Below, in pieces: positions 55,990 through 58,900 of a stretch of DNA of 64,000 nucleotides. Every line of letters starts with the position of its first letter. Positions within the stretch are counted from its first letter, which is position 1. Below the pieces are notes generated by a model that was not told the DNA's origin, did not search any database, and saw nothing but the letters and a program-made list of their open reading frames with translations. Both the position numbers and the translations under genes were made by a program. The stretch is from Candidatus Omnitrophota bacterium (GTDB lineage Bacteria > Omnitrophota > Gorgyraeia > Gygaellales > Profunditerraquicolaceae): positions 1 to 64,000 of the forward strand of contig JBEKSD010000003.1 in assembly GCA_049517335.1 (NCBI GenBank), read 5' to 3'.

Positions 55990-56651
55990 GAGAAACTCCT
56001 TTTAAAATAATCATATACGTCTTTCAAATTGCGGTATGAAAAACAGGTTAAATTTTTATCCTTAAAATGTTTCAACAAATCATCTTTGGCGAAAATAATA
56101 TCCGCATATTTTGACGGGCATATATCCGAGCGGCCGTCACCTATGTATATTATTATAGATTCCTTAGTCACATTTGCCAAGAGATTTTTCGTTTTGCAAT
56201 GTGCGCAAATATGGCATTTGTCGCTCGAGTAAGGGAATTTAGGCACAAGCTCATCTTTAACCAGGTGTAACTTATTGGAATAAATCTTGAGGTTCTTTAT
56301 TCCGTTTAAATGTAAAATGCGTTCTAATATATAATCAAAATTATCGCTTAAAACAAAAGTCTTTACTCCTCTTGATGCTAGGCCACGGACAATTTTCTTA
56401 AAGTAAGGGTCAATTTTTATGCCAGAGAGGTAATTGTCCAAAGCTTTCCTGGTTATGCTTAAACCTTTAATCTGGCCTTCCAGGCAGGCGCGGGAGCCGA
56501 TCTTACCTTTCTGCCACTTTGCTTCCAACTTCACCCAGAGGTCATCCTGAGAAAAACGCGGGAGCATATTGTCAAACACATCGCAGGTTGCGATAGTGTT
56601 ATCAAAATCAAAAAAAACGGCGCATTTATCGGGATTAATTAGCTTCATCAA
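55986..56651 (-). CDS. MtnX-like HAD-IB phosphatase
   Basis: FDFDNTI, C..CAHCK and IGDGRSDIC. Confidence 0.85.
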   Translation of the reverse strand: MMKLINPDKCAVFFDFDNTIATCDVFDNMLPRFSQDDLWVKLEAKWQKGKIGSRACLEGQIKGLSITRKALDNYLSGIKIDPYFKKIVRGLASRGVKTFVLSDNFDYILERILHLNGIKNLKIYSNKLHLVKDELVPKFPYSSDKCHICAHCKTKNLLANVTKESIIIYIGDGRSDICPSKYADIIFAKDDLLKHFKDKNLTCFSYRNLKDVYDYFKRSFS

Positions 56652-57657
56652 AACCTTTTCTAAAGACGCCCGCTATGGCCGTGCGGCAAAAAGAGCATCT
56701 TCCTTCCTCCAGATTATTCTGGGAAACATTAAAGAACTCCCTTTTAATCAGTAATTTTTTGCATTCCGGACAGTAAGTATCGCTGCCGGAACCGGGGACA
56801 TTGCCGATATAGATAAATTTAAGCCCTGCGTGGCTTCCTATTTTTTGCGCCCTCTCCAAGGTTGATTCCGGAGTAGTTTCGTAACCAATAAATTTATATT
56901 CAGGGTGAAAGCGCGAAATATGCCAGGGGATATTTTTATCAAGCTTTGCGATAAACCCGGCTATCCCGCTTAACTCTTCGTCTGAATCATTCTCTCCGGG
57001 AATCAGGAGCGTGGTTATTTCAACCCACACCCCCAGCCTTACCATACGCTCAATTGTACCCAGCACAGGCTGAAGAGTGGCCTTGCATATTTTCCTGTAA
57101 GATCTTTCTTTAAAGAACTTCAAATCCACGTTTGAGGCGTCCAGATAAGGCCTGATTGTCAAGAGCGCCTCTTCCGTCATGTAACCGTTGGTTACAAAAA
57201 CATTAAACAGGCCGTTAACCTTGGCTGACTTAGCCACGTCTAAAGCGTATTCAAAGAATATCGTCGGTTCAGTATAAGTATAGGATATACTCCGGCATTC
57301 ACTATCCAATGCCGCTTTCACGATTTCTTTCGGAGAAACTTCTTTTGCCTGTGCGCCTATATCCGGCGCCTGCGATATTTGCCAATTTTGACAAAAACCG
57401 CAACGGAAATTACATCCGGCTGCGGCAATGGAAAAACTCAAGCTACCGGGAAAGAAATGATACAGCGGTTTTTTTTCAACGGGGTCAACGTACGACGCCA
57501 CTACCTTACCGTAGCTGTAGGTAAAAAGCTCCCCTGCGATATTCTGGCGCACCCCGCAAAACCCAAATCCCTTTTCCCTAATCCGGCAGAAATGGGCGCA
57601 AAGATAACATCGCACTAAACCTTTACCTATCTTTTCATAAAGCAGTGCTTCTTTCAT
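56635..57657 (-). CDS. AmmeMemoRadiSam system radical SAM enzyme
   Basis: DPVEKKPLYHF, GCNFRCGFCQNW.ISQ and YTYTEPTIF. Confidence 0.9.
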   Translation of the reverse strand: MKEALLYEKIGKGLVRCYLCAHFCRIREKGFGFCGVRQNIAGELFTYSYGKVVASYVDPVEKKPLYHFFPGSLSFSIAAAGCNFRCGFCQNWQISQAPDIGAQAKEVSPKEIVKAALDSECRSISYTYTEPTIFFEYALDVAKSAKVNGLFNVFVTNGYMTEEALLTIRPYLDASNVDLKFFKERSYRKICKATLQPVLGTIERMVRLGVWVEITTLLIPGENDSDEELSGIAGFIAKLDKNIPWHISRFHPEYKFIGYETTPESTLERAQKIGSHAGLKFIYIGNVPGSGSDTYCPECKKLLIKREFFNVSQNNLEEGRCSFCRTAIAGVFRKGFDEAN

Positions 57658-57671
57658 TTCCCGGCAAACCT

Positions 57672-57703
57672 AAAAAGAAACCCTTAGCCTAAACAGGGTT
57701 TCC
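57672..57703 (-). terminator. Terminator overlapping the stop of the 26-aa ORF
   Basis: GAAACCCT-N10-AGGGTTTC followed by TTTTT. Confidence 0.6.
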
Positions 57704-57764
57704 TTCCTTTGTTCGCCTTCTTCGAACGCCAGTTAAGTTTCCCCCTGCGTTTTCTTTTTCCCAT
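57684..57764 (-). CDS. 26-aa basic peptide resembling ribosomal protein bL37 (MGKRKRRGKLNWRSKKANKGRKPCLG)
   Basis: Translated by hand; fills the gap between two genes; KANKGRKP resembles the bL37 motif KANHGKRP. Confidence 0.6.
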   Translation of the reverse strand: MGKRKRRGKLNWRSKKANKGRKPCLG

Positions 57765-57768
57765 AGTC

Positions 57769-58326
57769 TTAATATTTGTAATATTTGGAAGGTATAGAAT
57801 GCAATATATACCTTACTGCTTCATTAATACATTCATCGATTGCCTTATCCAGCGAAGCATCTGCGCCTGCCTGGCCCTGAACGCGCCCTACGGAGAAAAC
57901 CTGTGCGTTGGCATAATCCGCAATACGTATCTCCAAAGCAACATGGGTTTTATTAAGGGAAGCCCCTAGTAGTCCGCCGAATTCCCCGCTAGACGAACCG
58001 CCGCCGCCGCCTATACCGGAACGGCCTCCTGAGCGGTCCTGCGGCTCAAACTCCACTAATGTTGCGGTAAGGATCAACTCTGCCTGCTTAAGCGCGGGCT
58101 CACTTATCAGAAACCGGTTACTCTTTAATAGCGCGGCAATCAATTTTTCACGCAAAATAGACGCTGATTCTTTATCCGCCTTGGCGGCCTTCACTTCAAA
58201 ATCCGCAACTGTAATCTTTGCTTTTTTTCCTTCCGGCATAAAAAGTACCTTCTTGACCGAAGATATGCATCCGGAGAGCATAAAAACAACCAGGCAAACG
58301 GCAATTGCGTAAGTTATTTTCTTCAT
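57769..58326 (-). CDS. CsgG/HfaB family lipoprotein
   Basis: Lipobox LSGC; ITVADFE; L.KSNRF; VALEIRI.D. Confidence 0.75.
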   Translation of the reverse strand: MKKITYAIAVCLVVFMLSGCISSVKKVLFMPEGKKAKITVADFEVKAAKADKESASILREKLIAALLKSNRFLISEPALKQAELILTATLVEFEPQDRSGGRSGIGGGGGSSSGEFGGLLGASLNKTHVALEIRIADYANAQVFSVGRVQGQAGADASLDKAIDECINEAVRYILHSIPSKYYKY

Positions 58327-58343: not shown

Positions 58344-58844
58344 TTATTTATTGCTGTGCGGAGGGGTCTCCGTTTGCGTATTCTCTGTGCTTGTCTCGCC
58401 GTTAGGGGTTTCCTGAGGCGCAGCAGCCGATTCGGGCTTTTCAAGGCTGATATTCTTTGCAGTATTTTTACCCTCGGCTCCTACGATATAATCTATGCTC
58501 AACGTATCCTTTGGCTTTATTTCATCTATGCTTTTAATATTTTCGTAGGTTGTTTTTTCATCCGTACCGATAACCATATCTTTTTCCTGGTCTGTTTCAT
58601 AATCAAGGTATTTAACAGTAAGCGATTTTGCGGCAGGGTCTATTGAAAGAACTTCACCCCAAACCCATTGCGTTTCCGACTCACTCGGGGGCATAATCGT
58701 AGCCGGATTTTGCGGAACAGCTATCTCCTGTGATGCCGGCTGAGTAGCAACAGTGTCTTCCTGCGAGCCCTCTGCGGCAAAAACAGCACCTATAAATAAT
58801 AATGAAACCGAGATTACCAAGAGCGATAATTTATTAATCTTCAT
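58344..58844 (-). CDS. Secreted hypothetical protein (OB-fold-like)
   Basis: Signal peptide; WGEV.SID...L.VKY.DY; GGAGGTG RBS. Confidence 0.65.
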   Translation of the reverse strand: MKINKLSLLVISVSLLFIGAVFAAEGSQEDTVATQPASQEIAVPQNPATIMPPSESETQWVWGEVLSIDPAAKSLTVKYLDYETDQEKDMVIGTDEKTTYENIKSIDEIKPKDTLSIDYIVGAEGKNTAKNISLEKPESAAAPQETPNGETSTENTQTETPPHSNK

Positions 58845-58871: not shown

Positions 58872-58900
58872 AAAATATCACATAAAAACCTATTTGTCAA
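58872..58900 (-). promoter_or_regulatory. Candidate sigma70 promoter
   Basis: TTGACA-17-TATTTT with an extended TG. Confidence 0.55.

Follow-up and report, generated by a model that had tools for sequence, protein, structure and literature searches.

The window (the whole stretch of DNA that was analysed, 64,000 nt) contains a short open reading frame of 26 codons at 57684..57764 (-), which begins with ATG and encodes the peptide MGKRKRRGKLNWRSKKANKGRKPCLG. Basic residues occupy 12 of its 26 positions (seven Lys and five Arg), and its N-terminus reads M-G-K-R. The frame and the features around it, listed in the order in which the reverse strand is read, are:

58872..58900 (-): promoter-like site ahead of the 166-aa gene, TTGACA-17-TATTTT with TG (consensus match)
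58344..58844 (-): gene for a 166-aa protein with a signal-peptide-like start, probably the first gene of the small gene's transcription unit
57769..58326 (-): CsgG-like lipoprotein gene (Pfam PF03783), upstream neighbour, probably co-transcribed
57765..57768 (-): gap of 4 nt from the CsgG-like stop to the ATG of the small gene
57684..57764 (-): bL37-like gene, 26 codons plus TAA stop (ORF list, conservation, bL37 homology)
57663..57717 (-): terminator-like hairpin and U-tract; shares sequence with the 3′ end of the small gene, stop and last codons included (RNA folding)
56635..57657 (-): AmmeMemoRadiSam radical SAM gene, downstream, beyond the hairpin (TIGR04337, E = 1.1e-107)

A first-pass annotation of the window had called this frame a hidden gene of 26 residues, 12 of them Lys or Arg, that starts 4 bp after the CsgG-like stop and ends in its own terminator. 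The ORF list bears out its position, length and composition, and the distance is exact, the upstream ORF (57769..58326) including its stop codon. The terminator holds in substance: folding of 57655-57720 (-) gives a hairpin of 13 bp (57707-57695 paired with 57684-57672), U-tract included, with a stability of -26.6 kcal/mol (z = -4.96) that is equalled by 0 of 200 shuffles. A consensus terminator scan of the region returned 0 sites, probably because the loop has 10 nt and the scan allows 8.

The upstream ORF encodes 185 aa, is lipoprotein-like and matches PF03783 at E = 1.7e-6 (27.9 bits against a cut-off of 20.8). The 166-aa gene ahead of it has weak Pfam matches only, and its spacing and strand point to membership in the same unit as the small gene. 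The promoter-like site agrees with the consensus, on which alone it was called, at 10 of 12 positions, and two such sites occur in the region vs 2.4 expected by shuffling; together with the 166-aa gene it suggests a three-gene unit with the small gene last. Downstream, a gap of 26 nt separates the small gene from the radical SAM gene, a neighbour that is unique to the window among the loci compared; downstream neighbours vary.

Conservation and selection of the small frame

A six-frame search found a full-length, stop-free copy of the frame in 40 of 41 related genomes (39 of 40 genera, ten families, one order) at 69-100% identity, which is far beyond chance; the sole related genome without a match is 84% complete. 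Of 301 evenly sampled genomes of the phylum, 96 gave matches at E ≤ 2.9e-4, and all 48 sampled genomes of the window's order were positive. The best score beyond these 96 (E = 0.009) was judged not credible on inspection.

These searches of the related genomes and the phylum supplied 47 loci, and with 26 of 30 further fetched loci the locus set numbers 73; L070, L072, L073 and L074 were dropped as weak, chance-like matches. The 73 loci reduce to 41 distinct peptides, 40 of which form the alignment A1, the one left out being an upstream-start variant that duplicates the window peptide. Residues M1, W12, G20, P23 and G26 are invariant in A1, and R6, K9, L10, R13, S14, K15, A17 and N18 are at least 90% conserved. 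The motif of the window peptide is K-A-N-K-G-R-K-P, with Lys for the His of K-A-N-H-G-[KR]-[KR]-P, a His that is found in many orthologs; the A, N, G and P of the motif are invariant or at least 90% conserved in the window's family. Lack of conservation of the frame or its motif in relatives had been set out beforehand as the finding that would speak against the annotation, and both are kept.

Selection was analysed on 58 ungapped 78-nt versions, all differing in DNA. Mean entropy by codon position among these is 0.41, 0.31 and 1.25. The pN/pS ratio is 0.18, with pS saturated at 0.74, and is 2.7 in the +1 frame, while the median dN/dS over 787 unsaturated pairs is 0.055. The window peptide is encoded identically in nine genomes, where 9-16 of the 78 bases differ from the window, all synonymously. 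The dN/dS check that had been proposed for the frame thus indicates purifying selection, and the small ORF is a real gene that evolves under it.

In 44 of the 73 loci the gene immediately upstream, on the same strand, is a homologue of the CsgG-like gene (CsgG-like character was verified for one representative); 26 loci have a ZIP transporter gene downstream. In more distant relatives the flanks are a HAD hydrolase gene (11 loci) and an H+-pyrophosphatase gene (8 loci), so that an order of CsgG-like gene then ZIP transporter in one set of loci stands against HAD hydrolase then H+-pyrophosphatase in another. Since the frame is kept while its neighbours change, it is neither a leader peptide nor a by-product of a particular neighbour. 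The small gene has no signal peptide or export partner and lies outside any ribosomal-protein operon.

The earlier caveat of no clear Shine-Dalgarno (SD) motif is true for the window, where none occurs within 20 nt 5′ of the ATG. Among loci with a spacer above 8 nt or without a same-strand upstream ORF, 43 of 47 have an SD-like 4-mer. All twelve loci without such a 4-mer (the window included) have an upstream ORF whose end falls in the range from 20 nt of overlap to 6 nt ahead of the ATG, a spacing pattern that makes termination-reinitiation coupling probable at these SD-less loci.

Elsewhere in the phylum the family profile gave a best E of 0.027 across 81 genomes of another class, the best 12 loci there having no credible small ORF. 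Five near-complete genomes (97-99%) from families f11, f12, f16, f17 and f19 of the window's own class gave no gene either (best E = 0.119). The gene would therefore be dispensable or replaced in that class and those five families. A divergent, Trp-less 26-aa bL37-like gene, MAKGHRKRVRRNKRIKKANHGKRPNF, with a strong SD, was seen in genome G138 (G138:C37:14923-15000), where the family profile gives E of only 0.35; it belongs to a family first scored as gene-less and was predicted from the closing pair of 5S rRNA loop D, treated below.

Relationship to bL37 and its curated models

Scans of Pfam and NCBIfam with the window peptide returned 0 families at E ≤ 10, and a single-sequence search of the PDB returned 0 matches. 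Two curated equivalog models describe bL37, NF047428 (ribo_Myco_bL37; 24 positions, cut-off 30 bits) and NF047429 (ribo_Plancto_bL37; 32 positions, cut-off 40 bits), and neither matches the window's genome or the window peptide at E ≤ 10. Six of eight orthologs from the phylum match NF047428, with 21.2, 20.4, 19.8, 19.0, 16.1 and 8.5 bits (E 2.4e-4 to 2.2); the other matches of these six among 18950 NCBIfam families are bL37 models and one weak transposase (E = 0.41). The remaining orthologs, L012 and L064, have no NCBIfam match. On NF047429 the orthologs reach at most 13.7 bits, below its 40-bit cut-off, and across the 301 genomes of the phylum NF047428 gave seven weak matches, none above its cut-off.

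The A1 profile gave five matches at E ≤ 10 when compared with all PDB chains. Three of them are bL37 of Mycobacterium tuberculosis, Cutibacterium acnes and Mycobacterium smegmatis, matched end to end at E 3.8-5.5 with heavy bias terms. The best is the Tetrahymena mitoribosomal protein mL102 (E = 0.24), matched via KKANHGARPC.

Bona fide bL37 genes were retrieved with a DNA pattern encoding KANHGKRP, taking one genome per species, which gave at least 120 loci. Among the 120 matches listed, every one falls within a small basic ORF (one of them truncated at the end of a contig), with 98 of actinobacterial type and 22 of Planctomycetota type; the record titles of the same listed matches name 22 Planctomycetota, 97 actinobacterial taxa and one labelled Acidobacteria. 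Three forms of bL37 appear among the matches listed, of 24 aa in Actinomycetes, 26-28 aa in Acidimicrobiia and 32 aa in Planctomycetota. The Acidimicrobiia consensus is MSKKTxKRKxRxRRSKANHGKRPNxGRG, and the Planctomycetota form has its motif near the N-terminus. The 28-aa Acidimicrobiia form carries the NCBI name '50S ribosomal protein bL37' (e.g. WP_419554825.1); all three Acidimicrobiia forms tested pass NF047428 (30.6-41.1 bits vs the cut-off of 30), and an Acidimicrobiia profile matches bL37 chains of known structure (E 1.8e-7 to 1.1e-5).

A few retrieved records are unusual in themselves. The one labelled Acidobacteria bacterium (L116, JAGWXX010000038.1) has a bL37 identical to the Ilumatobacteraceae form, with uL30 present, and its label or binning may be wrong. 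In L091, L121 and L125 (Mycolicibacterium and an Actinomycetota MAG) bL37 is six codons longer (...KRPNAGSKSVR, ...PNCGSKAVR), reaching 30 aa.

Against Acidimicrobiia bL37, the window peptide aligns without gaps over its whole length with 12 of 26 residues identical (E = 1e-5), and an ortholog from the window's order has 16 of 28 identical over 28 of 28 residues (E = 3e-9). Profile-profile alignment of A1 by hhalign gave 97.5% (P = 7.7e-12, 28 columns) with the Acidimicrobiia set, 96.7% (P = 3.2e-10, 24 columns) with the Actinomycetes set and 88.6% (P = 2.6e-6, 12 columns) with the Planctomycetota set. Because the peptides are low in complexity, a column-shuffle control was run (200 shuffles per set, M1 kept), whose scores had a mean of about 10.5, a standard deviation of 2.6 and a maximum of 21.7. 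The real scores of 43.8 (Acidimicrobiia), 37.5 (Actinomycetes) and 25.7 (Planctomycetota) were each reached by 0 of 200 shuffles, which goes against the earlier caution that a basic, low-complexity peptide can match by chance.

Part of the hhalign score is circular, because the comparison sets were retrieved with a pattern that already contained the motif. A control outside the motif was made for the Acidimicrobiia set only, using the 19 columns other than the eight motif columns and M1. Their in-register score is 25.8 vs a permutation mean of 1.5 (z = 3.4), and 15 of 20000 permutations reach the real value; the P-x-x-G-R-G tail alone is equalled in 6 of 20000.

The 40 distinct peptides of the family fit the bL37 format (24-32 residues, rich in Lys and Arg, starting M-[AGS]-K, encoded by a stand-alone gene), and intermediate sequences connect them with the other bL37 groups. 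The resemblance to bL37 that the first-pass annotation had proposed is thus upheld by an end-to-end alignment that beats the composition controls. On sequence grounds the window protein represents a subfamily of the bL37 family, and a divergent one because the window peptide falls below both curated models.

A collection of some 15 billion predicted proteins contains none of six peptide variants looked up in it, the window's own among them; two Acidimicrobiia forms and the mycobacterial form are there, under the name bL37. Gene callers miss the small gene, in line with what had been suggested, and it is a new, unannotated member of the known bL37 family. Its description as lying outside Actinobacteria is right for the window's phylum and not new to curators, since NF047429 already models Planctomycetota bL37; with this model in existence, bL37 is no longer purely actinobacterial for curators. 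Passages of four papers (PMC10618245, PMC10085706, PMC10081302, PMC12123416) describe bL37 as mycobacterial or actinobacterial, and a literature search found no paper joining bL37 with Planctomyc* or Omnitroph*.

Planctomycetota also hold diverse bL37-like genes under the 40-bit cut-off, e.g. MARNYRRIKKANHGKRPCCGN... (G406, G343, G412, G357, G388, G354, G390, G387). NF047429 has matches in 13 of 81 Planctomycetota genomes searched, and because only 4 of these 13 are above its cut-off, many such genes are probably unannotated too.

A conserved component that gene callers do not see would leave the ribosomal inventory incomplete for uncultured phyla, and ribosomal protein inventories are relied on both for universal markers and as the reference point for ribosome evolution. 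The present sequences extend bL37 to a third phylum and supply natural variants, with invariant Trp12, Gly20, Pro23 and Gly26 and either His or Lys in the motif. Such variants could inform mutagenesis and structural studies of bL37, and a family profile built from them would let annotation pipelines call the small gene.

5S rRNA and uL30 around the bL37 pocket

In passages of PMC10085706, PMC10618245 and PMC12123416, bL37 is described as a small helical peptide in a cavity under the 5S rRNA tip, near the peptidyl-transferase centre, where it contacts H39, H40, H72, H89 and 5S rRNA. Its deletion in M. smegmatis is described in a section of PMC10081302 as giving no growth or global translation defect, a tolerance that fits the patchy distribution of the gene in the window's phylum. 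In Borrelia burgdorferi, according to a passage of PMC10618245, an N-terminal extension of uL30 occupies the bL37 pocket.

The window's genome has 23S and 5S rRNA genes, the 5S gene at C1:221883-221999. The length of 5S rRNA was rejected as a marker of the small gene, being 116-118 nt with or without it. The closing pair of loop D (alignment columns 85 and 90, 54 genomes) is C-G in all 18 carriers within the phylum and G-C in 19 of the 20 same-class genomes first scored as non-carriers, the exception being G138; in 16 genomes of other classes it is mixed. This correlation between the loop-D pair and the small gene is suggestive, and is confounded by relatedness.

A loop-D signature across phyla was rejected, the arm being truncated in Planctomycetota and full in Actinomycetota. 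In Planctomycetota it falls short by at least 6-7 nt whether or not NF047429 gives a match, and in three Actinomycetota genomes it is full-length and carries other loops. The sampled Planctomycetota 5S rRNAs are short overall (105-120 nt, mostly 106-112), with a truncated loop-D arm.

Ribosomal protein uL30 (PF00327) was not found in the window's genome. The spc operon of that genome (G000:C6:42670-45864) reads L18, S5, L15; the S5 and L15 frames share 4 nt, and no gene intervenes. Within locus L210 the three ORFs are:

878-1237: L18
1240-1692: S5
1689-2246: L15 (+)

The L15 of this genome is 185 aa long and has a Lys-rich N-terminal stretch (MKKAAPKKEVKETKVKPKTKASKK...); its sole Pfam L15 match, PF00828, spans residues 111-177.

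Across the phylum uL30 was not found in 300 of 301 genomes, the one marginal match lying inside a 435-aa frame. It was found in 0 of 81 Planctomycetota genomes and in all three actinobacterial-type genomes searched, so that two of the three phyla with bL37 forms are without uL30 in the genomes sampled. As a correlate within the phylum uL30 was rejected, since it is missing regardless of the small gene. With uL30 missing, the surroundings of the pocket would differ from those in mycobacteria; that bL37 compensates for the loss of uL30 is speculation.

Interpretation and comparison with known systems

We think it likely that the small ORF is a translated gene for a highly basic, 26-residue, divergent bL37, probably a protein of the 50S pocket. 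By analogy with mycobacterial and Cutibacterium ribosomes, from which we infer ribosome binding and the pocket, the peptide would enter the rRNA cavity beneath the 5S tip near the peptidyl-transferase centre and bridge 23S helices H39-H42, H72 and H89 with 5S rRNA. Its Lys and Arg side chains would offset the charge of the phosphates, with specificity coming from the conserved K-A-N-x-G-x-x-P turn. The small gene would be the last in a unit of the 166-aa gene, the CsgG-like gene and itself, and is probably translated by reinitiation 4 nt past the upstream stop and ended by the hairpin/U-tract terminator; both translational coupling and operon membership are read from the arrangement of the genes.

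Other accounts of the frame differ in how much of this they give up. The most sparing would make it no gene at all, only a by-product of the 3′ end of the CsgG-like gene and its terminator, and a hairpin that overlaps the last codons, the lack of an SD in the window and an ORF that no gene caller reports would all agree with that. The frame is nevertheless kept where neighbours and downstream sequence have changed, with its own SD in most loci, and its third codon positions are saturated while the protein stays constant and the +1 frame shows a pN/pS of 2.7, so that we give this account practically no weight. A real conserved micro-protein might instead have come to look like bL37 by convergence of short, basic, low-complexity sequence. 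Peptides of 24-28 residues, a window peptide missed by both curated models, and PDB profile matches to bL37 at E 3.8-5.5 with large bias terms are what one would then expect; against it, composition-keeping column shuffles score at most 21.7 vs the real 43.8, the match is gapless from end to end between peptides of equal length with equal start and end features, the non-motif columns alone are reached by 15 of 20000 permutations, and intermediate sequences link the groups. Convergence is very unlikely in our judgement.

Somewhat less improbable, though still unlikely, is a true relative of bL37 that is no stable component of the ribosome and acts as a free RNA- or DNA-binding basic peptide or as an antimicrobial one. 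The gene stands behind an envelope lipoprotein gene and not among ribosomal genes, its occurrence in the phylum is patchy, M. smegmatis tolerates the loss of bL37 (a section of PMC10081302), and C. acnes bL37 inhibited Gram-positive growth in disk assays, as a passage of PMC10085706 describes. Against a free peptide, all family members of known location are in the 50S subunit, the small gene has neither signal peptide nor export partner and its neighbours change, and the recurrence of one and the same peptide in different genera, with every DNA change synonymous, suits a partner that varies as little as rRNA.

The likely reading, of a divergent bL37 in the 50S subunit, could be widened. We regard it as doubtful, and put it forward tentatively, that bL37 is an old, patchily kept large-subunit protein and not an actinobacterial invention, with distinct forms in Actinomycetota, Planctomycetota and the window's phylum, that the ciliate mL102 segment is related to it, and that in the two phyla without uL30 it shares in anchoring the tip of 5S rRNA to domains II and V of 23S rRNA and co-varies with the loop-D pair.

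Several known systems resemble the small gene to different degrees. Proteins bS22, Thx, bL36 and bL34 are similar in size and charge and are often missed by annotation; none of them is among the PDB matches of the A1 profile or the NCBIfam matches of the orthologs. The uL30 extension of Borrelia burgdorferi differs in being part of uL30 and not a separate gene, whereas the window's genome has no uL30.

The best PDB match of the Planctomycetota-type bL37 profile (E = 6.7e-5) is to residues 65-87 of Tetrahymena thermophila mL102 (6Z1P chain AQ, 109 aa). Unlike the small gene, mL102 is nuclear-encoded and has the motif in an internal segment. According to a passage of PMC7326499, mL102 sits in the region flanked by the central protuberance and the L7/L12 stalk. 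The segment, RPPKKANHGARPCSSVMRRLKKK, is a possible mitochondrial relative of bL37; a literature search found no paper linking mL102 with bL37, and the plant 'mL102', an unrelated PPR protein, was rejected as the same protein.

Planctomycetota bL37 (32 aa, NF047429) shares K-K-A-N-H-G-[KR]-[KR]-P with the window's family, and some have P-C-C-G like the P-C-L-G of the window; both phyla are without uL30 in the genomes sampled. It differs in its motif, placed close to the N-terminus, and in the basic tail of 15 residues that comes after it. The bL37 of Actinomycetes (24 aa; 5O60 chain 3, 7KGB chain v, 8CRX chain V) is likewise tiny and basic, with the same start and the end K-A-N-H-G-K-R-P-N, whereas it is one residue shorter before the motif than the window's family and has no Trp and no x-G tail. 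Its hosts have uL30, which the window's phylum does not, and its position under the 5S tip comes from cryo-EM, as described in passages of the structural papers, where the window protein is known here from its sequence.

Closest of all is the bL37 of Acidimicrobiia. Differences are the invariant Trp12 of the window's family and its Ser-Lys-Lys before A-N, the Lys for His and the R-K for K-R of the window peptide, and a place below the NF047428 cut-off for the window's family vs above it for the Acidimicrobiia forms. The two share a near-equal length, the M-[SG]-K-[KR] start, K-L at positions 9-10, the K-A-N-x-G-x-x-P motif and the P-x-x-G(-R-G) tail.
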